The notes under the pieces were generated by a model. The model searched no databases and was not told the DNA's origin. It was given only the letters and a program-made list of their open reading frames with translations. A stretch of 64,000 nucleotides of DNA from the IMG/VR virus record IMGVR_UViG_3300011268_001497, positions 1 to 64,000 of that record, one strand, 5' to 3'. Below, piece after piece: positions 2,462 to 35,079 of this stretch. Both the position numbers and the translations under genes were made by a program. Numbering within the stretch: position 1 is the stretch's first letter; each line of letters starts with the position of its first letter. The DNA comes from a virus.

Positions 2462-3085
2462 ATGGCAAGAAAAAGTAGGGAGTTCAAGCTAAGTAAAGAG
2501 CAGCAACGCTTGGCGGCTGAGAATATTAATCTTGCCAGAAGAGAAGCTTGGAAGCTTCAAAGAACTACTGATATTGATTACGATACGCTTGAGGGTGCGG
2601 CACTAGAGGGACTTTGCAAGGCTGCCTACAGATATGATCCATCTTCTGGATACAAGTTCAGCAGTCTTGCCGTGCCAACCATCAGGGGCGAACTACTGCA
2701 TTGGATCAGGGATAGAACCTATGCCATGCGGTTGACTCATAAGATGCGCGAAACGTGGATCAAGGGCCGCAGGCTTGTTTACAGGGGTGTCTGCGACGAA
2801 GACATTGCCAAAGAGCTCAACATTGAAATCTCCGAATGGCAAGAGATCAAAAGCGTATGCTCTGGCCCGCCGCTTGAGTTAAATGATCAGGCCAAGCCTA
2901 CAGAATGCCTCGAACCGGATGAGATCGATTTCGCCGAGGACTTCATGGTAAGAGCTTGGCATGCCTACAGAGCCCTGGATGAACAGGACAAGAGTTCAAT
3001 CATGAATTACTTTTGTAATAGTTCTTCAAGAAACCCGGCCTCTGCTATGTCCAGCTTCTACTACCTCAGCCAAAATAGCCACTGA
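2462..3085 (+). CDS. sigma-70 family RNA polymerase sigma factor (apparently lacking region 4.2)
   Basis: 207 aa; region 2 signature DTLEGAALEGLCKAAYRYDPSSGYKFSSLAVPTIRGELLHWIRDR; region 3-like HTH DEDIAKELNIEISEWQEI; region 4.1-like LDEQDKSSIMNYF; the last 23 aa do not look like a region 4.2 HTH. Confidence 0.75.
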   Translation: MARKSREFKLSKEQQRLAAENINLARREAWKLQRTTDIDYDTLEGAALEGLCKAAYRYDPSSGYKFSSLAVPTIRGELLHWIRDRTYAMRLTHKMRETWIKGRRLVYRGVCDEDIAKELNIEISEWQEIKSVCSGPPLELNDQAKPTECLEPDEIDFAEDFMVRAWHAYRALDEQDKSSIMNYFCNSSSRNPASAMSSFYYLSQNSH

Positions 3086-7959: not shown

Positions 7960-8478
7960 ATGAGCACACTGGTTGACCATCAAATACGGGAACTCTGCCG
8001 TAACTCGGGCCTTGTGGAGACATTTGACCCTGAGATGGTCAACCCAGCCAGTATCGATGTAACGCTTGGCGATACAGTCCTTGTCGAAGGCCGGATCTGC
8101 GGTCCGGAAAGCGAGAGGACTCGTTGGATTCCTGTTGACATAAGCCAGGGGTTCATGCTGACCCCTGGTCAATTTATCCTTGCCCATACGGCTGAGTTTG
8201 TCCGTGTGCCGAACTGGATTGAAGCAATTGTGCAACTAAAAAGTAGCAGAGCAAGAGAAGGTCTTGAACATCTGCTGGCTGGTTACATTGACCCCGGATT
8301 CAATGGGCAAGTGACCCTTGAATTGTTAAATGTCAACCAAAGGCATTCGATTGAACTGATGGCAGGCATGAGGGTCGCTCAGTTGCGATTTAATAGCCTC
8401 GATACGCCACCTCTTCGCTCTTATGCATCAACTGGGCGCTACATGAATGATGTTGGCGCTGTACCCAGCAAAGGCTGA
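7960..8478 (+). CDS. dcd: dCTP deaminase (dUTPase-fold)
   Basis: 172 aa; ASIDVTLGD, FILAHTAEFVRVP, GYIDPGFNGQVTLEL; starts 3 nt after the RNR stop. Confidence 0.85.
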   Translation: MSTLVDHQIRELCRNSGLVETFDPEMVNPASIDVTLGDTVLVEGRICGPESERTRWIPVDISQGFMLTPGQFILAHTAEFVRVPNWIEAIVQLKSSRAREGLEHLLAGYIDPGFNGQVTLELLNVNQRHSIELMAGMRVAQLRFNSLDTPPLRSYASTGRYMNDVGAVPSKG

Positions 8479-11160: not shown

Positions 11161-11454
11161 ATGAAACAGTCAAGACATGCAAGATATATGCAACAAAAAA
11201 GAAGAGAGAACCGAGATAGGTTAGTCAGTTTATTTGGGGGCAAATGCATTCGCTGTGGATTCGCCGACCATCCCTCTGCTTTTGACTTTCATCATATTGA
11301 CCCCTCAACAAAAGAGATTTCTAGCTCGCTGGCTCAAATGAGTCTTAAGTACGAAAAAGTTGAGAAGGAAGCGGCTAAGTGCATTATGGTTTGCGCCAAC
11401 TGTCATCGCGAAATTCATGCTAGACTTAGCGAGCTACAACGTGAGCCGACGTAG
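11161..11454 (+). CDS. HNH endonuclease
   Basis: ORF 11146..11454, ATG at 11161; CIRCG...FDFHHIDPSTK...CIMVCANCHREIHA; last 10 nt overlap tRNA-Arg. Confidence 0.8.
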   Translation: MKQSRHARYMQQKRRENRDRLVSLFGGKCIRCGFADHPSAFDFHHIDPSTKEISSSLAQMSLKYEKVEKEAAKCIMVCANCHREIHARLSELQREPT

Positions 11455-11517
11455 TTCAGCGGATAGAACAACGCTCTTCTAAAGCGTGTGTCGCAGGTTC
11501 GATTCCTGCCGTCGGTG
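11445..11517 (+). tRNA. tRNA-Arg (anticodon TCT)
   Basis: Hand fold: GCCGACG/CGTCGGT acceptor (one G-U), D arm GTTC..GAAC, anticodon arm ACGCT-CTTCTAA-AGCGT, T arm GCAGG-TTCGATT-CCTGC; CCA encoded at 11518-11520. Confidence 0.85.
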
Positions 11518-11520
11518 CCA

Positions 11521-16019: not shown

Positions 16020-16092
16020 AGCCCCCAGATGGAATTGAACCATCCTCTCCGCTTTACAAGAGCGGTGCATCGCCACTGAATGCTTTAAGGGC
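16020..16092 (-). tRNA. tRNA-Thr (anticodon TGT)
   Basis: Hand fold of reverse complement: acceptor GCCCTTA/TGGGGGC (two G-U), D arm GCAT-TCAGTGGCG-ATGC, anticodon arm CCGCT-CTTGTAA-AGCGG, T arm GATGG-TTCAATT-CCATC; 73 nt. Confidence 0.75.
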
Positions 16093-18259: not shown

Positions 18260-18436
18260 TTATTTCGCCGGCGGCGCTAGTGGGTTCAGGGCCACTTCTA
18301 ATAAAAAGGCCGCAAGATTGGACATCGAGCGACCTTCAGTCATAGCGCGAGAGATGAGGCGATCATTCGTAACCGCAGCGATAGTTATAGTCAAGCGTTG
18401 AGGCTTGCGCTGCAGCTGAGCCAGTTGTACCGACAT
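18260..18436 (-). CDS. ribbon-helix-helix (CopG/Arc/MetJ-like) DNA-binding protein (58 aa)
   Basis: ORF 18260..18544, ATG at 18436 preferred (just after upstream gene end at 18450); KPQRLTITIAAVTNDRLISRAMTEGRSMSNLAAFLLEVAL fits the strand-helix-helix pattern. Confidence 0.6.
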   Translation of the reverse strand: MSVQLAQLQRKPQRLTITIAAVTNDRLISRAMTEGRSMSNLAAFLLEVALNPLAPPAK

Positions 18437-18449
18437 GCTGTGAGCAGAG

Positions 18450-18773
18450 CTAGGGGAAGGGGTTCTCATCATTAGTAATAGCAAGGGTATGAAATGGATT
18501 CCTTGATTCAAAGGCCGCTTCAATTCTATTCCCACAATGATCACAAGTCAAGTCTGTCTCATCCCAATTGATGTCCATTCCAATAACGCACCAGCCATCA
18601 TTGCCAGTGGTCGTACCAATCCAACTACGCTGACTTCCGCAGCATGCATGACACAGCGCTGCACCATCGTTTGTCCTCGCGTATAACGGATACCCGCCGG
18701 GCCATGCATAACGCTCTTTATGGACCTTGTCGGCGATTCTCAGGCTTTTTGATTGTGTTGTCATTTCAACCAA
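18450..18773 (-). CDS. hypothetical Cys-rich protein (107 aa)
   Basis: ORF track; CHACC...CDHC possible metal-binding cysteines. Confidence 0.5.
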   Translation of the reverse strand: MVEMTTQSKSLRIADKVHKERYAWPGGYPLYARTNDGAALCHACCGSQRSWIGTTTGNDGWCVIGMDINWDETDLTCDHCGNRIEAAFESRNPFHTLAITNDENPFP

Positions 18774-19630: not shown

Positions 19631-19906
19631 TCATTCTTCGACATCGTCGAACGTATTGATCAGCGCATGCTCCCCAATAACGGCTAATGCCGTCTTGTTC
19701 CATGCCTTCGCAGCCTCGATCTCGTCCACAAAGGCTCCGATATACCACCGCCTTCCCTGGAACGTCAAAGCAGCCCTGTAAGGCTTCTTCGGATCATTGT
19801 TCTTCGAAACACCCTTGTACTTGCTGAACTGAGGCTTGTTCCGTGGCCTGCTCGACAGCTTGATGTAGTGCTCCTTCTCGTCGACATTCCTGAAATAGTA
19901 GCCCAT
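19631..19906 (-). CDS. AP2-domain DNA-binding protein
   Basis: ORF 19631..19924 (GTG) or ATG at 19906; YKGVSKNNDPKKPYRAALTFQGRRWYIGAFVDEIEAAKAWNKTALAVIGEHALIN is an AP2/ERF-type domain. Confidence 0.7.
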   Translation of the reverse strand: MGYYFRNVDEKEHYIKLSSRPRNKPQFSKYKGVSKNNDPKKPYRAALTFQGRRWYIGAFVDEIEAAKAWNKTALAVIGEHALINTFDDVEE

Positions 19907-19992
19907 CTTTAAAACAAAAGACACGCAACTATAGACCCCGACCCCCTTAGCCTTAAAGATTTTATTTTTTCTTAATTATCCAGTAGCCCTTA

Positions 19993-20304
19993 TTAACCAT
20001 CACCTCTGAACCACCTCCTCTTATTCCCAAACCACTCCGCCAATGTCACAGGATCCTGTGGCCCTACCAGATGATCGCTCGGATCTGGCTCCCCTAAATC
20101 TAAAGCCTGACAAAACTCATCCATCTCACTTACCTCTTCCCCTTGGACAGCAGCTCTCCTCGCCTGTCTTAACATCTTGTCAACAGTTGGATTCCTATCC
20201 GCCCACTTCTGCACCCACGTCATATCACTGAACTCTACAGGAGCTCCTAATCGAATCCTCTCACAAATAAATTCAACTCTCTGGCGGGTTTGTGATGAAA
20301 GCAT
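19993..20304 (-). CDS. hypothetical protein (103 aa)
   Basis: ORF track; first gene downstream (leftward) of the long non-coding region. Confidence 0.5.
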   Translation of the reverse strand: MLSSQTRQRVEFICERIRLGAPVEFSDMTWVQKWADRNPTVDKMLRQARRAAVQGEEVSEMDEFCQALDLGEPDPSDHLVGPQDPVTLAEWFGNKRRWFRGDG

Positions 20305-20350
20305 TCCCGCTTTCCGGCTTGCATATTATTCCTTATCCACTTCTCAAACC

Positions 20351-20378
20351 TGTCTCATGAGACCCTCTTGATGAGACA
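20351..20378. promoter_or_regulatory. inverted repeat TGTCTCAT-N12-ATGAGACA upstream of the leftward gene 19993..20304
   Basis: Perfect 8-bp arms at 20351-20358 and 20371-20378, about 50-75 bp upstream of the ATG at 20304. Confidence 0.4.
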
Positions 20379-20474
20379 AAACCATCCCTTCACCCCTTTC
20401 TCAACTCTCTCAAAAGGGTATCTTTAAACTACCCCTAAGGGGTATCCTCAGACAACCCTTTTACCCCAAACGCT

Positions 20475-20538
20475 TTAATGTAATATTATTATCTAGAGTA
20501 TATATATTAATATATATATATTAACTAGATACTACTAG
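20475..20538. repeat. AT-rich palindromic block A
   Basis: TTAATGTAATATTATTATCTAGAGTATATATATTAATATATATATATTAACTAGATACTACTAG; (TA)n arms around a TTAA centre. Confidence 0.7.
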
Positions 20539-20595
20539 CTCTTATCAACTTGGTTAACAAGAACAACAGCCAATACTAAAAATCCTTCCTACCAT

Positions 20596-20614
20596 TGTCC
20601 TCCTTCGGAGGACA
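20596..20614. other. perfect 8-bp hairpin TGTCCTCC-TTC-GGAGGACA followed by TTTCCTTCCTTCCTTTCC
   Basis: Read directly at 20596-20632. Confidence 0.6.
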
Positions 20615-20884
20615 TTTCCTTCCTTCCTTTCCGCCAGCTAATTTTTTTTCTAAAAAAACCTTTTCTCTGTACCCTACACCCCATGGTTTTATCTGAAAGC
20701 CTCTGAGAGGTGTCTAGAAGCCCCTGGAAGACCCTTCTACTACCGCTTGGCTATCTTTCCCTATCCATACCCCCTAGAACCCTGTTACAGAGCCTTACAG
20801 ACCTAACCCCTCTCGCAACACCTAAAACCCTCCCTCAAATCCCTAAAACTGAAAATCATTCTCATCCCTCCAGTACTCATACGA

Positions 20885-20921
20885 CCCTCACCCCCTATAC
20901 CCCCTTAATCCCTTAAATCCC
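20885..20921 (-). other. G-quadruplex-type motif on the minus strand (five C3-5 tracts on +)
   Basis: CCC-TCA-CCCCC-TATA-CCCCC-TTAAT-CCC-TTAAAT-CCC; all loops 3-6 nt, satisfying G3+N1-7 x4 on the complementary strand. Confidence 0.6.
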
Positions 20922-21035
20922 TTCCAATATCTACATCCCCTAATCCAATTAACTACTTACTTACCCCCTTAACTACCCATTTTGATAAGGTTTAATCAGT
21001 TAATCTGATCATTCCTAGTACTACTAACCAGATAA

Positions 21036-21200
21036 GGTAATATGACCTAGTAACTAGTATATATATATTATAATATATATATTAATATATATAATCTAGT
21101 TATAGTATTTAAATACTCTGTATTTAAATACGATTAATCTAGTTATTCTAGTTAACTAATCTATCTAGTAATATTAATCTAGTTATTCCTAGTAATAACC
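21036..21200. repeat. AT-rich block B with iteron-like direct repeats and tandem palindromes
   Basis: TAATCTAGTTAT at 21092, 21135 and 21175 (17-mer ATTAATCTAGTTATTC shared by the last two; diverged copy TTAATCTGATCATTCCTAGTA near 21000); perfect palindrome GTATTTAAATAC at 21105-21116 and 21120-21131; (TA)n run 21056-21095. Confidence 0.75.
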
Positions 21201-21228
21201 CCCTCCCATAACCCTCTCATCCCCCTCT

Positions 21229-21441
21229 TTAACCCCATTTTTGAGGCCTTTCAGCCCCTCGCTGACGGTCAATCCAAAACAGAAAATGCCGCCGAACAGA
21301 CATCCGATTTCCCTTTTTCCCGTCGGCTGATTTTCCCTTTTTAAGATTTCTCAAAATGAGACGCGATGAGACGATGTCCAGGTCTTTGAGTACCTGTCTC
21401 AAACACAGGTACGCAGGAATTGGACCGACCCAGTCCCACAT
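21229..21441 (-). CDS. doubtful hypothetical protein (70 aa)
   Basis: ORF 21229..21558, ATG at 21441; upstream part of the track ORF runs through repeat element E1, so only the short form is plausible. Confidence 0.3.
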   Translation of the reverse strand: MWDWVGPIPAYLCLRQVLKDLDIVSSRLILRNLKKGKSADGKKGNRMSVRRHFLFWIDRQRGAERPQKWG

Positions 21442-21570: not shown

Positions 21571-21592
21571 AATAAAAAAGCCCCGAAGGGCT
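21571..21592 (-). terminator. rho-independent terminator (leftward)
   Basis: Minus strand reads AGCCC-TTCG-GGGCT followed by TTTTTTATTT; overlaps the stop of 21591..21779. Confidence 0.75.
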
Positions 21593-21779
21593 AAGAAGAT
21601 CTTATTCTCCAAGATTCGACCCAATAATGATCATCTGGGCATTCTCGATTCATTTCCTCTATGTGTTCTCTTGCTGCTGACATATTGTCGTAGATATCGC
21701 ATAGCCCCGTGTCGAAAGATTGAACAACGAACACCTCTTTACCGACGGGCCTGAGGACAATAATATCAGAGTTTGTCAT
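21591..21779 (-). CDS. hypothetical protein (62 aa)
   Basis: ORF 21591..21980, ATG at 21779 (14-nt overlap with upstream gene); MTNSDIIVLRPVGKEVFVVQSFDTG... Confidence 0.45.
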   Translation of the reverse strand: MTNSDIIVLRPVGKEVFVVQSFDTGLCDIYDNMSAAREHIEEMNRECPDDHYWVESWRIRSS

Positions 21780-26979: not shown

Positions 26980-27246
26980 TTAGCGTTGTTGTTGATTAAG
27001 GTGTCGGTTGAGTGTAAACAATTGGGCGTGCCAATCAGTGATGGCGTCGACGCAAGATCCTACCGAATCGATGTCAAGATCTGTGCAGGGCATCAGATTA
27101 TTTATCAGCATTGTTGAAACGTCAAGCAATGCCATTCGGTAGAAGAACCTCTCTGAATCATTGAGCGAAGCGTACATGGGATTTGCTTCGATTAGCTGTT
27201 CGATCAGTTCAGCCTGAGAGAGGATGTGGTCGGTGGTTGCGCTCAT
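26980..27246 (-). CDS. hypothetical protein (88 aa)
   Basis: ORF 26980..27312, ATG at 27246 directly after leader. Confidence 0.5.
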   Translation of the reverse strand: MSATTDHILSQAELIEQLIEANPMYASLNDSERFFYRMALLDVSTMLINNLMPCTDLDIDSVGSCVDAITDWHAQLFTLNRHLNQQQR

Positions 27247-27277
27247 GGGATTGTTCCCTTGGGACTCCTTTATTATA
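27247..27277 (-). promoter_or_regulatory. conserved -10/leader cassette
   Basis: Minus strand: TATAAT-aaaggaGTCCCAAGGGAacaaTCCC-ATG; preceded by hairpin AGGGG..CCCCT (27284-27305). Confidence 0.65.
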
Positions 27278-27315
27278 GAGGGTAGGGGCCACTGGTGCGA
27301 CCCCTGTAACAAGTC

Positions 27316-27528
27316 TTAGTACTTTGCTGCCTTCTTCGCCAGCGCTCGGGCTGCGTGATATTCGCTGTAGAATCCGTCATGAGACAGGCCGGCCTGAGCC
27401 ATGGCCCGTTGGGTTGCGCAGTGTGCGAGGTTGAGCCAATCGAACAGGCTCAGTTCTTCGTCTGTCTTATCACCGCACCGCCAGACGGCGAGGTTGAGAT
27501 CAGCGAGGTGGGAATCAGTGAGGGCCAT
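27316..27528 (-). CDS. hypothetical protein (70 aa), paralogue of 25940..26125
   Basis: ORF 27316..27639 (GTG), ATG at 27528 after leader; shares FD.LN.A.CA.QRA and EY..A motifs with 25940..26125. Confidence 0.5.
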   Translation of the reverse strand: MALTDSHLADLNLAVWRCGDKTDEELSLFDWLNLAHCATQRAMAQAGLSHDGFYSEYHAARALAKKAAKY

Positions 27529-27581
27529 GGGGATCTCCCCTTGGGACCCCTCTAGTATAGCGCAATGGATGGGCGTGTCAA
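27529..27581 (-). promoter_or_regulatory. near-consensus sigma-70-type promoter plus conserved leader
   Basis: Minus strand: TTGACA-N16-TATACT-agagGGGTCCCAAGGGGagatCCCC-ATG. Confidence 0.7.
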
Positions 27582-27627
27582 CAATGTTACGAGATGTGAC
27601 GTGGTGGCGTGGTGGTGGTGGATGGTG

Positions 27628-27659
27628 TAGGATGGGCACATCACCAAGGGAGCATTCCC
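27628..27659 (+). promoter_or_regulatory. -10-like hexamer plus conserved leader (rightward)
   Basis: TAGGAT-gggcacatCACCAAGGGAgcatTCCC-ATG; back-to-back with the leftward promoter at 27554-27581. Confidence 0.5.
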
Positions 27660-27893
27660 ATGAGACCCTTCCTCCTTGCCGCCGCCTTCTCCTGTGGATC
27701 TGCCATGGCAGGGGTGTTCTACCTCAGCAGCATGGCAACCCCCATCATCAGCGAAGCTCGGGCAGAGAAGCTCGGTGCATACTGCGAGGCAGGTGTGCCC
27801 GAAGCATGCGAGATCCTAGCGGCCGAGTCGAATGGACAGTGTGCCGGACCCTCGGGCAGTGGCTGCCTCTATAACAGTAGCGTTATGAGGTGA
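27660..27893 (+). CDS. hypothetical secreted Cys-rich small protein (77 aa)
   Basis: ORF 27609..27893, ATG at 27660 after leader; signal-like MRPFLLAAAFSCGSAMA; 6 further cysteines. Confidence 0.5.
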   Translation: MRPFLLAAAFSCGSAMAGVFYLSSMATPIISEARAEKLGAYCEAGVPEACEILAAESNGQCAGPSGSGCLYNSSVMR

Positions 27894-27904
27894 TGTGCAG
27901 CACG

Positions 27905-27924
27905 GGTGGTACAGGCGTACCACC
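27905..27924 (+). other. perfect 8-bp hairpin GGTGGTAC-AGGC-GTACCACC after 27660..27893
   Basis: Read directly; T-run (TTTTTT) lies about 20 nt downstream, so terminator function is uncertain. Confidence 0.4.
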
Positions 27925-28000
27925 CCCCACCCCCGAAAATTCCTTTTTTAGTGCCAAAGCAACCCCCTCAGGTTTTCTGAGAAAATTTCCGAAACCGAAA

Positions 28001-28159
28001 ATGCCACTTTCAAAATTGACCACCAAGTTTTTGATTATTATTTTTATGATGACGTTATTTAGTGGAGTAGCGGAGGCTAAGCGAGAGAAGAGTGAGCAGA
28101 AGTGGAGGAGTTGTTGGGTGACGAGGGGCAATGTAAGGACGAGGGTTATTTGTCAATAA
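28001..28159 (+). CDS. possible small secreted basic peptide (52 aa)
   Basis: ORF 27890..28159, ATG at 28001; MPLSKLTTKFLIIIFMMTLFSGVAEA then KREKSEQKWRSCWVTRGNVRTRVICQ; a stop-free + frame is unusual in C-poor sequence where all three stops are frequent. Confidence 0.3.
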   Translation: MPLSKLTTKFLIIIFMMTLFSGVAEAKREKSEQKWRSCWVTRGNVRTRVICQ

Positions 28160-28316
28160 GGGAGGAGAGGTGATTTAGTTTAAGGAGGATATAGGAGAGG
28201 AGAGGGGTACCGATGAGGGAGGAGTAGAGAGCGATACGGATTTCATGTTGGCGGATTTTATCGTCCATTTGGCGTAGGAGCCAGGGAGTTATGGTGGGGT
28301 CAGAGGAGGTTTCGAT

Positions 28317-28341
28317 GGGGTCTGGGCGACGGGATTGGGGG
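28317..28341 (+). other. canonical G-quadruplex motif on the + strand
   Basis: GGGG-TCT-GGG-CGAC-GGG-ATT-GGGGG. Confidence 0.65.
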
Positions 28342-28654
28342 TTAGAGGTCATGATCAGGCGATAGAGCGAAGGTAGTCGCGTTGTTTTGGGGTAAGGAGA
28401 GGGAGGAGGCGGAGGAGGAGTTTTTTAGAGGGATCTAGGTCTAGGGTTGAGTACATAGTGGATAGGATTTGTTTAATTGCGATAGTGTAAGAGGATTGGA
28501 TAGCGAGGTAGAGGGCGAGGGTGAGGGTTAATTGTTGATGCATTGGATAGGAGTAGAGTTATATGATTAATTCTAGGGCAATATTAGGAAAACTAGTGGT
28601 TATTTACGAATAAAAGTATGAATATTGGAAGTATAAGGGGAGTAAGTAGGCATT

Positions 28655-29056
28655 ATGGCGACATTAGACACTAGTTATGGGTGGGTTGCCGGTGATGTGG
28701 AGCGTATTTTGCTTGCTCTTGACTTAGGGATTGGTGGTTATACGATTAGTGAGATGACGGTGTGTTGTAATAAGTTAGGGGAGACGAGTTCAACGCTTGT
28801 TGGGAGGGTGAGAGAGCTTTTAGGGGAGTATGACGATGCGATTGAGGTGCAAAAGGGGTTAGGAGTGAGTGAGGATGCGGGGAGGACGTTAATCAAGGCT
28901 GATGTATTGGAGTGGGAGGTAGATAAGGGGGGTCGATTTGAGGCAATTATGAGGGAAAAGGGAAGGATTAATGATGAATTGCTTAAGATATTTGCATTTT
29001 GTCCGCTAGCATTTGGCGGTTCCAGTAGAAATAGCACGTCACTTATCAGGTCTTAG
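28655..29056 (+). CDS. hypothetical protein (133 aa) encoded in C-depleted DNA
   Basis: ORF track; a 133-codon stop-free frame on the C-poor strand is very unlikely by chance; protein is Gly/Glu/Leu/Val-rich as expected from C-poor codons. Confidence 0.6.
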   Translation: MATLDTSYGWVAGDVERILLALDLGIGGYTISEMTVCCNKLGETSSTLVGRVRELLGEYDDAIEVQKGLGVSEDAGRTLIKADVLEWEVDKGGRFEAIMREKGRINDELLKIFAFCPLAFGGSSRNSTSLIRS

Positions 29057-29058
29057 TC

Positions 29059-29238
29059 ATGATTCACCCCGAGAATGGAGAGGGGTTAAATGAGATTATT
29101 GATTTTGTAGAGAGGCAGGAGATGATTGATGTATGGTGTAAGGGATGTAGTATGTTTCGTAAGGCAAATAGTGCTTATGCGAAGTATTTAAATGGAGAGA
29201 TTAATGGATGTAGGTTTTGCAGAGAGGATAATGCGTAA
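29059..29238 (+). CDS. possible small zinc-ribbon-like protein (59 aa), below ORF-track cutoff
   Basis: Hand translation MIHPENGEGLNEIIDFVERQEMIDVWCKGCSMFRKANSAYAKYLNGEINGCRFCREDNA*; CxxC...CxxC. Confidence 0.4.
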   Translation: MIHPENGEGLNEIIDFVERQEMIDVWCKGCSMFRKANSAYAKYLNGEINGCRFCREDNA

Positions 29239-29239
29239 A

Positions 29240-29347
29240 ATGCTGACAGAGGAGGATTTAGAGGGATTAATGGAGAGGGCTAAGAGTCTTAAGATGATGG
29301 AGTTATTTGAGGAGCCGAGCAGTTATGAGGATGAGGAGGAGGAGTAA
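29240..29347 (+). CDS. possible very small acidic protein (35 aa)
   Basis: Hand translation MLTEEDLEGLMERAKSLKMMELFEEPSSYEDEEEE*; starts 1 nt after previous stop. Confidence 0.3.
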   Translation: MLTEEDLEGLMERAKSLKMMELFEEPSSYEDEEEE

Positions 29348-29417
29348 AGATTTCGTTAACAATTGAGGTAAACTGAATAAGTCCAAAAGTTTGGGCTTGT
29401 TCTTACTTATTACTTCA

Positions 29418-30497
29418 ATGACTGCTACACTTTCACGCCAGCAGCCAGTAAACCAATGGGACTCATTCTGCGAATGGGTAACGAGCACTTCAAACCGTCT
29501 TTATGTGGGTTGGTTTGGTGTTTTGATGATTCCTTGCTTGCTAGCTGCGACGACTTGCTTTATCCTTGCGTTCATTGCTGCCCCACCGGTTGACATTGAT
29601 GGCATCAGGGAGCCCGTTGCTGGTTCGTTGCTTTATGGCAACAATATTATTTCTGGGGCTGTTGTACCCTCTAGTAACGCTATTGGTTTACACTTTTATC
29701 CAATTTGGGAGGCGTCGGGTTTAGAGGAATGGTTATATAATGGTGGGCCTTATCAGTTGGTTGTATTTCATTTTCTGATTGGTGTTTTTGCATATGCTGG
29801 TCGGGAATGGGAGCTTAGCTACCGACTTGGTATGCGTCCTTGGATTTTTGTTGCCTACCTCGCCCCTGTTGCTGCTGCTACTGCAGTGTTCCTCGTCTAT
29901 CCGTTTGGACAGGGTTCCTTCAGTGATGGTATGCCTCTTGGCATTTCAGGAACATTTAATTACATGCTTGTTTTTCAGGCGGAGCATAATATCCTCATGC
30001 ACCCCTTCCATATGCTTGGGGTGGCTGGTGTATTTGGGGGTTCTTTGTTCTCTGCTATGCATGGATCTTTGGTCACTTCTAGTCTCGTTCGCGAGACGAC
30101 TGAAGAAGTAAGTCAGAACTATGGCTACAAATTTGGGCAAGAAGAAGAGACGTATAACATTGTTGCCGCTCATGGCTACTTTGGCCGTCTTATTTTTCAA
30201 TATGCTTCTTTTAACAATAGCAGGAGCTTACACTTCTTCCTTGCTGCCTGGCCTGTTGTTGGCATTTGGTTTGCTGCTCTTGGTGTTAGCACCATGGCTT
30301 TCAACCTGAATGGCTTTAATTTCAACCAATCGCTTCTTGACAACAATGGTCGGGTGGTTAATACTTGGGCTGATGTACTTAATAGAGCTAACCTTGGTTT
30401 TGAGGTAATGCATGAGCGCAATGCTCATAACTTCCCTCTTGATCTTGCTTCTGCCAGCACGGTTAATGTTGCATTAACTGCTCCTGAAATTGGTTGA
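29418..30497 (+). CDS. psbA: photosystem II reaction-centre protein D1
   Basis: ORF 29391..30497, canonical start MTATLSRQQ at 29418; near-complete match to D1 throughout ([53 protein letters not shown] plus C-terminal extension); uninterrupted. Confidence 0.97.
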
Positions 30498-35011: not shown

Positions 35012-35079
35012 AGGCACTTCCAGGAATCGAACCTGGCATTCTAGGCTATATGCCTAACGTGTTCCAACACTAAAGCGCC
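35012..35079 (-). tRNA. tRNA-like element with aberrant D and anticodon loops (possible TAT anticodon or pseudo-tRNA)
   Basis: Reverse complement: acceptor GGCGCTT/AAGTGCC, D arm GTGT-TGGA-ACAC (4-nt loop), anticodon arm TTAGG-CATATAG-CCTAG (A at position 33), canonical T arm CCAGG-TTCGATT-CCTGG; 68 nt. Confidence 0.45.

Follow-up and report, generated by a model that had tools for sequence, protein, structure and literature searches.

We analysed a stretch of viral DNA of 64,000 nucleotides (nt), positions 1 to 64,000 of IMG/VR record IMGVR_UViG_3300011268_001497 (hereafter, the window), in which a segment lying just upstream of the psbA gene is strongly depleted in cytosine on the + strand. 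This segment is very probably a domain that is anchored at a conserved non-coding element, fixed to one DNA strand, continuously varying among relatives, recurrent, and kept by purifying selection against + strand C. With somewhat more doubt than conviction, we propose that it is the extreme form of a conserved, position-anchored cytosine-avoidance domain of S-CBS2-like cyanosiphoviruses, in which the selected property would be that of a transcript running outward from the element.

A cytosine-poor domain upstream of psbA

Between positions 28030 and 29350 the + strand contains 107 C in 1321 nt, i.e., ~4.9 per 60 nt, and its composition (A.278, C.081, G.366, T.275; 64% purine) corresponds to a GC skew of +0.638. 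The values for the whole window are C.222, G.249 and a skew of +0.056. When the skew is calculated in 500-nt windows over the 64 kb (mean 0.057, standard deviation 0.134), it goes beyond |0.35| at two places only, namely at 27.9-29.0 kb, where it is positive, and at 19.7-21.0 kb, where it is negative. The C-depleted segment reported in a preliminary description of this DNA is therefore real. At 200-nt resolution, it displays a sharp left edge at ~28.0 kb (28000-28030), a plateau from +0.54 to +0.74 and a right edge, also sharp, at ~29300-29350, just ahead of psbA. The right end, before a psbA of normal composition, is as described previously; the left end had been placed at 27895, but 27895-28029 is C-rich (C.31, G.18), lies outside the block and holds the conserved non-coding element, and the true onset is at ~28030. 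The skew amounts to +0.684 in the part consisting of non-coding DNA and minus-strand genes (28030-28654), and to +0.593 in the part occupied by + strand open reading frames (ORFs; 28655-29347). The domain, its genes (products in amino acids, aa) and its neighbour are the following:

28030-29350, + strand: C-avoidance domain, comprising genes on both strands and intergenic DNA
28146-28352, - strand: m68 (68 aa), a real gene with a G-poor sense strand
28355-28543, - strand: m62 (62 aa), a real gene, orthologue of S-CRES3 gp74
28544-28654: divergent intergenic region between m62 and ORF133, A/T-rich, C 4.5%
28655-29056, + strand: ORF133, a conserved protein, all-helical in a predicted model (pLDDT 76)
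29059-29238, + strand: ORF59, a small CxxC...CxxC protein with >80 syntenic homologues
29192-29347, + strand: ORF51, kept in two close relatives, with a weak PHROG match
29418-30497, + strand: psbA, normal in third-position composition (C.21, G.19), bounding the domain

The two minus-strand ORFs, initially considered doubtful, are both real genes. m68 has homologues in 8 close relatives, with 42-81% identity and in-frame indels, and its substitution rates at codon positions 1/2/3 are.13/.05/.27; the corresponding rates of m62 are.21/.12/.42, and its ~45 orthologous loci are always in minus orientation, ~250 nt upstream of ORF133. As for the three + strand ORFs, all of which had been regarded as real, this holds for ORF133 and ORF59, both with many homologues. 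ORF133 has >190 database homologues and is found at 76 viral and 80 metagenomic loci; its counterparts in S-CBS2 (gp011) and S-CRES3 (gp75) open the head-tail structural operon. As previously anticipated, a long open frame on this strand is improbable by chance, the probability of at least 134 codons in the composition of the block being ~5e-4. The ORF133 protein belongs to no Pfam or PHROG family and has no sequence match in PDB, and its sole fold match is its own S-CBS2 homologue. On the other hand, ORF51 is unconfirmed as coding: over two close relatives it has no coding substitution pattern (.13/.17/.15), and it may be either a gene or a conserved signal upstream of psbA. Between m62 and ORF133, members of the L001-L004 clade (L numbers designate relatives) carry a small + strand ORF of skewed composition, which is absent from the window and would encode a hydrophobic peptide, MT[I/V]YVCSGLMF[V/I]LFVG[V/I]IIGLE... 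(L004 9868-9960, L002 ~2119-2210).

The depletion extends to the coding content. At third codon positions, the + strand genes of the block contain C.065 and G.34, the baseline of the genome being C.23 and G.21, and the sense strand of m62 and m68 is the mirror image (G.04, C.53). The codon usage comparison bears out the view that the protein alphabets are forced: the amino acids requiring C (P, H, Q, T, A) drop from ~25-30% to 8-18%, while Leu is shifted to TTR and Arg to AGR codons.

The skew follows strand and position in many relatives

The skew is fixed to the DNA strand and to the position, irrespective of gene direction, in agreement with the preliminary description. Indeed, the minus-strand genes m62 and m68 are G-poor in the sense strand, and the + strand skew of m62 orthologues ranges from -0.39 (L055) to +0.73 (the window). 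Likewise, members of the family of ORF103, a gene described below, are found on either strand within the right-hand domain of relatives, and each time it is the + strand that is G-rich (L005 974-1264 on the + strand, skew +0.56; L057 2282-2557 and L016 9264-9539 on the - strand, +0.37 and +0.49). As a mobile member of the skewed neighbourhood, present there in either orientation, this family shows that rearrangement around the conserved element is frequent.

ORF133, ORF59, m62 and m68 are syntenic in the relatives (>100 contigs, plus S-CBS2 and S-CRES3). Among the relatives as a whole the skew varies without a break between -0.14 and +0.8, and over the 76 viral ORF133 orthologues between -0.14 and +0.65. 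In these orthologues it rises with the use of C-free synonymous codons (rho.80 for Leu TTR,.62 for Arg AGR), falls with the content of C-requiring amino acids (rho -.64) and is weakly associated with lower genome GC (rho -.47). The extreme state is that of a whole deep clade (the window, L001-L007 and others), whose members are only ~60% identical in protein, and is found independently in L058; intermediate values are scattered over the tree. High values have arisen more than once, and all independent lineages share the polarity of the skew.

In the gene-aligned profiles, the skew sets in abruptly 250-600 nt upstream, in many cases preceded by a short run of negative values. It peaks at the onset and, in relatives without the psbA insertion (L005, L058, L008/9, L017, L057), fades progressively over 1.5-2.5 kb, reaching into the structural genes; an abrupt stop is seen where a terminator-like hairpin is followed by psbA. 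The search among relatives that had been suggested shows that the close ones carry the same block next to psbA. In the window, the synonymous sites of psbA, 0.8-1.8 kb from the onset, are of normal composition. Overall, the skew is confined to 1.3-2.8 kb and is not replichore-wide.

Probable selection against cytosine

The composition of the fourfold-degenerate sites in ORF133 is A.22, C.27, G.17 and T.34 for unskewed orthologues, and A.34, C.05, G.29 and T.32 for skewed ones. At the sense-strand fourfold sites of m62, G falls from.35 to.02, mostly in favour of C, which reaches.54 in the window. Since C is replaced by purines and T is not raised, cytosine deamination is excluded.

Young substitutions were polarised over ~1180 nt of the block by means of two shallow sister sub-clades, which have an internal identity of at least 90% and served as outgroups to one another; the control was the flanking 2.2 kb of normal-composition DNA from the same genomes. 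These shallow counts replaced a parsimony spectrum obtained on the deep tree, which was discarded as biased. Among the young variants of the block, 38 gains of C were found against 5 losses (p = 2.5e-7). In the comparison with the flanking control, the block has 34 gains and 6 losses, and the flanks 58 and 50 (Fisher p = 5e-4). Gains and losses of G, on the other hand, are balanced in the block (56 vs 48-52). The rate of T>C per T is alike in block and control (.045 and.041), and that of C>T per C is not raised (.027 in the block vs.062). The estimated mutational equilibrium of C is ~.22 in the control, where the actual value is.19, and ~.31 in the block (lower bound ~.17), where the actual value is.07. 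Furthermore, C is held at 7-11% across a clade in which synonymous divergence is saturated. Given that C is gained at a normal rate and yet stays at 7-11%, newly arisen C's must be eliminated, and the force that maintains the domain is most likely purifying selection directed at C on the + strand, or equivalently at G on the - strand; selection appears to act on the avoidance of C, and the G-richness bears no sign of it. Neither mutation bias, nor foreign origin, nor protein-level selection explains the domain.

Strand-asymmetric mutation is accordingly very unlikely as a cause. Under this explanation, a strand kept persistently single-stranded, close to an origin or a strong promoter, would suffer damage, the + strand by deamination of cytosine or the - strand by oxidation of guanine. 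Such damage would fit the gradient from a fixed point and the continuous amplitude, and the - strand fourfold change, from G to T and from G to C, resembles guanine oxidation; but T is not raised on the + strand, which excludes deamination, the per-site loss of C is not raised while its gains are normal, the equilibrium of C is ~0.3 against an actual 0.07, and the psbA synonymous sites are normal although they fall within the distance range. A variant combining guanine oxidation of an exposed - strand with a long terminal repeat and resection, which fitted the spectrum, was rejected because the young variants display no raised loss and the DNA between this block and its mirror image is the most GC-rich. 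Practically negligible is the recent insertion of foreign DNA from a donor of the same composition, a possibility raised in the preliminary description. The atypical composition, and a window ~330 nt longer than the L001-L006 clade, would be in keeping with it; however, the genes of the block are syntenic orthologues in S-CBS2, S-CRES3 and >100 metagenomic relatives, whose composition runs from normal to extreme in a continuum of skew, and the 'extra' m68 is kept also in the closest relatives.

A conserved non-coding element at the onset

The C-rich sequence that precedes the domain contains a bipartite element, here called Box 1 and Box 2. Its features, and those found at the two ends of the domain, are:

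27904-27925: perfect 9-bp palindrome/hairpin, GGGTGGTAC-AGGC-GTACCACCC, an operator-like GTAC palindrome
27923-27936, + strand: Box 1, CCCCCCACCCCCGA
27957-27995, + strand: Box 2, aaGCAACCCCCTC, plus the inverted repeat CTCAG-GTTTT-CTGAG and an A/T-rich tail; onset of the skew a short way beyond
28016-28044, + strand: sigma-70-like promoter match TTGACC-17-TATTTT, a weak match to the consensus at the exact onset of C depletion
29375-29402, + strand: terminator-like hairpin at the end of the domain, just before psbA, with an analogous site in L004

The element is kept in 52 distinct relatives, whether skewed or unskewed, in which it precedes the 3' end of m62 and follows the consensus aCCCCCC[A/G]CCCCGA (Box 1), a ~20-nt spacer, gCAGnCCCCTC, also written GCAnCCCCCTC (Box 2), and an A/T-rich tail. 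It is located at the junction of the leftward gene cassette and the rightward structural operon. In all skewed relatives the onset of the skew comes directly after Box 1/Box 2. The sign of the skew flips from negative to positive at the element. Box 1 is flanked in many lineages by AGTAC-N4-GTACT palindromes, and the variant of the window, GGTAC-N4-GTACC, represents a compensatory change. In L004 and L165, GTAC palindromes form a cluster also where the leftward cassette has its far end, beside non-coding G-poor DNA that includes a (TA)n palindrome and is homologous to the core of the left block of the window. The same GTAC palindromes being present at both ends of the cassette, these ends look like commonly controlled, outward-facing regions.

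Lineage-specific iteron arrays are found directly upstream of Box 1 (L004 9230-9500, L006 9520-9660, L057 2055-2150, L060 9180-9440), and AT-rich tracts stand beside the element in relatives. In L060 there are ~20 direct and inverted copies of TCTCAGACAA/TTCCTGAGA, and CTCAG-N5-CTGAG of the window (27967-27981) is an inverted pair of this iteron word; the iteron-like repeats of the window sit at the mirror block. Contig ends accumulate in this region: 35 of the 76 viral contigs stop at most 1 kb upstream of the ORF133 homologue, vs 2/76 at most 1 kb downstream. For instance, the 62-kb contig L163 stops 1.17 kb upstream, and L068 has its start precisely at Box 1. Apart from this, contigs start at scattered points, and the long contigs L165 and L166 read straight through the region. 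This hotspot may reflect either a hypervariable or iteron region that breaks assembly or a physical end nearby. At the other end of the domain, the counts of the terminator scan were no better than in shuffles. Just upstream of Box 1 (27660-27893, + strand), the window would encode a small, predicted secreted, Cys-containing peptide (MRPFLLAAAFSCGSAMAG...), which has a counterpart in the closest relative, L163, at ~560-705.

A mirror-image block

A block of opposite polarity had been described at 20390-21228, bracketing together with the present segment a putative early cassette array, and is indeed present at ~19.7-21.3 kb. It comprises:

19700-21300: mirror-image domain, + strand G-poor, skew maximum -0.79
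19993-20304, - strand: ORF103 (103 aa), inside the mirror block
840 nt, non-coding: core of the mirror block, with a homologous core in L004 and L165
20484-20537 and 21048-21102: (TA)n palindromes of the mirror block, with CTAGTTA repeats

The inner edge of the mirror block, at ~21.3 kb, is sharp, and the skew decays leftward. Both blocks therefore have a sharp inner edge and extend outward, with the G-poor strand serving as template for outward synthesis in either case. The 6.7 kb separating them has the highest GC in the window. A canonical minus-strand terminator sequence can be read at ~21575-21597, upstream of the left block in the leftward sense. The words TCTCA/TGAGA form suggestive clusters at both inner edges, with weak statistics.

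Other repeats were noticed around the left block. Two tight clusters of the words TGAGAC/GTCTCA at 20352-20377 and 21349-21401, including the palindrome GTCTCATGAGAC and TCTCAAAATGAGA, and a GTACCTGT...ACAGGTAC palindrome at ~21385-21410 lie at its edges, although the statistics are weak overall (2 inverted pairs vs 0.97 expected). A strong hairpin of the window, TGTCCTCC-TTCG-GGAGGACA (~20597-20616), differs from the stem-loop of the relatives, GATGGCC-N24-GGCCATC, which is kept in L004 (6300-6350) and L165 (6875-6920) in the non-coding far end of the leftward cassette. A further block of mirror polarity occurs in a different genome, L041 (85.8 kb), at positions 1-900; its skew is -0.47, it contains an inverted ORF59 homologue, and it is ~9 kb upstream of an unskewed ORF133 homologue.

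G-quadruplex motifs and strand structure

A canonical G-quadruplex (G4) motif (G3+N1-7 x4) is present on the + strand at 28317-28341, as reported, within the N-terminal codons of m68 (Pro/Arg/Ser codons). However, it does not exceed what composition predicts, the probability of at least one such motif in shuffles being 0.31-0.35, and the G-tracts that had been emphasised are likewise at chance level (38 G3+ runs vs 40.8 expected). The motif is not kept either: it is lost in the closest long relative, L163, and is missing from the blocks of 14 of 19 relatives. It is a by-product of composition and of the m68 codons and is excluded as the driver of the domain. As selection avoids C rather than gaining G, the R-loop or G4 interpretation implied by the preliminary description is weakened. 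No G-rich word resembling the polar oligomers Chi or KOPS is over-represented, the enriched words being conserved coding words; no avoided sequence context was found around C, and comparing 27000-30000 with Rfam, up to an E value of 1, yielded no match.

G-C pairing is impossible within a strand that lacks C, and equally so within its complement. The - strand RNA of the block has a mean folding energy of -8.3 kcal/mol per 150 nt, vs -33.5 for GC-matched controls, and the block holds 16 of the 20 least-structured - strand windows of the 64 kb. The + strand RNA still folds (-26.8 vs -36.4 kcal/mol per 150 nt).

Possible role of the domain

We suggest that selection could act on a property of the single strands that a polymerase makes or exposes as it moves outward from the element. 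On a G-poor template, a C-poor nascent strand would be unable to form G-C hairpins. According to this model, a rightward primary transcript would begin at the element, pass as a leader through ~0.6 kb antisense to m68 and m62, go on into ORF133, ORF59 and ORF51, and stop at the hairpin before psbA. The near-absence of C would prevent stable structure, and hairpins acting as terminators, in its 5'-proximal kilobase. The mirror block would play the corresponding part in the leftward direction, while the G-richness, the G4 motif and the odd protein alphabets would be by-products. The outward-facing orientation of the blocks, the promoter-like match and the terminator-like hairpin that bound the right one, the lack of structure of the - strand, the GTAC palindromes shared by the cassette ends and a sigma factor encoded by the phage support the model.

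Several points weigh against this explanation. The case for selection was built by parsimony and with a small number of C losses (5-6); part of the C gains could stem from recombination with relatives of weaker skew, and the gains show no enrichment of singletons. The promoter scan gave 3 matches vs 2.7 expected in shuffles, which is not significant alone. For an unstructured + strand RNA, removing G would be better than removing C, and this RNA still folds. Furthermore, the iterons, the AT-rich tracts and the sign switch of the skew fit a replication-related element equally well, and to our knowledge there is no established precedent for the avoidance of RNA structure on a kilobase scale.

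An explanation nearly as good as outward transcription, albeit one that we regard as unlikely, is an element linked to replication or recombination, in which Box 1/Box 2 and the iterons would constitute an origin or a fixed initiation or cut site, and the G-poor strands, namely the - strand on the right of the element and the + strand leftward of the edge of the mirror block, would be outward leading-strand templates or resected 3' tails, selected to remain hairpin-free as single-stranded DNA. The iteron arrays and AT-rich tracts by the element (L004, L006, L057, L060), the (TA)n palindromes with CTAGTTA repeats of the mirror block, a skew that switches sign at the element, ignores gene orientation and decays with distance, the lack of structure of the - strand and the contig ends piling up upstream of the ORF133 homologue (35/76 vs 2/76 downstream) are all consistent with it. 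On the other hand, no initiator protein was identified, the contig start points are scattered rather than gathered at a single site, the GC-richness of the 6.7 kb between the blocks misfits a terminal repeat exposed on both strands, and the normal synonymous sites of psbA are more readily explained by a boundary at a transcription terminator than by a process depending purely on distance. We consider improbable that the domain is an R-loop or G-loop zone, in which a G-rich rightward RNA hybridised to the C-rich template, with G4 structures on the displaced strand, would prime replication or regulate expression. ColE1 RNA II, mitochondrial CSB II and the T4 origins are precedents for such zones, the GC skew is very high downstream of a plausible, though weakly matching, start site, and the G-rich strand is the non-template strand for outward transcription in both blocks; but G runs and G4 motifs are not above composition and the latter are lacking in the blocks of most relatives, gains and losses of G balance, and T, i.e., U in the RNA, is not depleted, whereas rU:dA are the weakest hybrid pairs. 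Slightly less probable still is a general avoidance of recognition sites, by which a C-less strand, devoid of any site that needs both G and C, including every palindrome with G and C and, in both orientations, most asymmetric sites of restriction or methylation, would make the DNA restriction-proof, for instance in the part that enters the cell first, as in the first-step-transfer region of T5 or the leading end of T7. Selection on C itself, with no avoided context and no enriched oligomer, agrees with this idea, and the contig-end hotspot could mark a physical end; however, a single cut elsewhere would still be lethal unless DNA entry is staged, a symmetric need for site-free DNA does not predict a uniform polarity in independent lineages, and the long contigs L165 and L166 pass straight through.

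Two other candidates were rejected. A design based on Rho and its rut sites would fit the composition perfectly, but cyanobacteria are without Rho (PMC12642595). A shortage of cytidine triphosphate (CTP) or of its deoxy form (dCTP) is not implied either, because the class II ribonucleotide reductase and the dCTP deaminase encoded in the window convert a surplus of C nucleotides. A scan of dCTP-deaminase relatives returned 4 loci only, none of them on contigs bearing ORF133, and was uninformative.

Genome and host

The large terminase (TerL) is 74-79% identical to those of the Synechococcus siphoviruses S-CBS2 and S-CRES1-3, which identifies the phage as a marine S-CBS2/S-CRES-like cyanosiphovirus. 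Its host would be a cyanobacterium, judging from psbA and the S-CBS2-like TerL. The genes are directed rightward as far as ~17.6 kb, leftward between 18.2 and 27.6 kb, and rightward once more beyond 28.65 kb. In addition to psbA, their products include a DnaG-type primase, a class II ribonucleotide reductase, a portal protein, a tail tube protein and an HNH protein. A sigma-70-family factor, in which region 2 only was detected, and a dCTP deaminase are encoded at 2462-3085 and 7960-8478, respectively, the latter adjoining the ribonucleotide reductase gene. No DNA-modification genes were found among the genes of the window.

A few further features were observed. ARAGORN predicts a tRNA with anticodon CTA (labelled Pyl), of the amber-suppressor type, at 11445-11520, adjoining tRNA-Met and tRNA-Leu(TAA); other tRNAs are tRNA-Thr(TGT) at 16020-16092 and tRNA-Ile(TAT) at 35012-35079. 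A 97-aa product encoded at 19631-19924 (- strand) has, by eye, the look of an AP2-type DNA-binding protein (YKGV...W.A...G...IG.F...EAA.A.N..A), with no Pfam match at E up to 0.01. This product, an RHH protein encoded at 18260-18544 and the phage sigma factor are candidates for binding to Box 1/Box 2 and to the GTAC palindromes.

Relation to known systems

The block recalls several known systems without coinciding with any of them. R-loop zones with GC skew, such as those of CpG-island promoters, immunoglobulin switch regions, ColE1 RNA II and mitochondrial CSB II, have in common with it a kilobase-long, strand-fixed excess of G that extends from a start site, putative in the case of the block, on the non-template strand; the block differs in having no enrichment of G clusters or G4 motifs, selection against C and no depletion of U, and the amplitude of the skew in typical zones is far below its 0.6-0.8. 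The GC-skew switch at the origins of bacterial chromosomes and some phages likewise involves a change of sign at an iteron or AT-rich site, independent of gene orientation. The switch described here, however, is local (1.3-2.8 kb), about ten times stronger and not mutational. In vertebrate mitochondrial DNA, too, one base is extremely depleted on one strand (~5% at synonymous sites) and protein composition is distorted, but there a genome-wide deamination spectrum (C>T, A>G) tracks the time spent single-stranded, whereas the block is local, selected, and exchanges C for purines.

Purine loading, or Szybalski's transcription-direction rule, would agree with a + strand that is 64% purine and carries most of the genes. 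Nevertheless, m62, m68 and the minus-oriented members of the ORF103 family have pyrimidine-loaded, G-poor sense strands, so that the rule is violated inside the domain. A functional analogy may be drawn with engineered three-letter sequences, such as the G-less cassette and those of DNA nanotechnology, in which one of G and C is removed and G-C hairpins are thereby abolished, the - strand being similar; the block, however, is natural and encodes five or six proteins on both strands. Finally, a leftward RNA of the block would be extremely C-rich and G-poor, which is the signature of the rut sites of Rho-dependent polarity, and the rightward RNA is the opposite; since cyanobacteria are without Rho, the known reader of such sites is absent from the presumed host. 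We found no description of a selection-maintained single-base-avoidance domain in the searchable literature.

Significance for cyanophage biology

Local base composition tends to be interpreted as no more than a trace of mutation or of foreign origin, and the present case cautions against taking either G4 motifs or an 'alien' composition at face value. Here, the sense-strand GC skew of an orthologous gene shifts from +0.39 to -0.73, and proteins are written in restricted alphabets, because of selection on one strand at one position. If this is true, the domain would be a natural case of a physical or enzymatic need of a DNA strand outweighing codon and amino-acid preferences over more than 1 kb. 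It would also offer a handle, obtainable from sequence only, on control regions such as the starts of transcription or replication in uncultured phages, and would point to a base-specific process in cyanobacteria, which have no Rho and in which termination is poorly understood.

It is quite possible, and we put this forward as a conjecture, that the avoidance of a single base on one strand over a kilobase represents a previously unrecognised cis-acting compositional element of phage genomes. Such a 'three-letter' domain would be held under selection at the expense of what the genes of either strand need for coding, a C-free product or a G-free template being required by some direction-specific process that involves a single strand; this process might be the start of outward transcription or replication at a control element, or the action of some unknown base-specific host factor or defence. 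The pressure behind it would have arisen repeatedly in widespread marine cyanophages.

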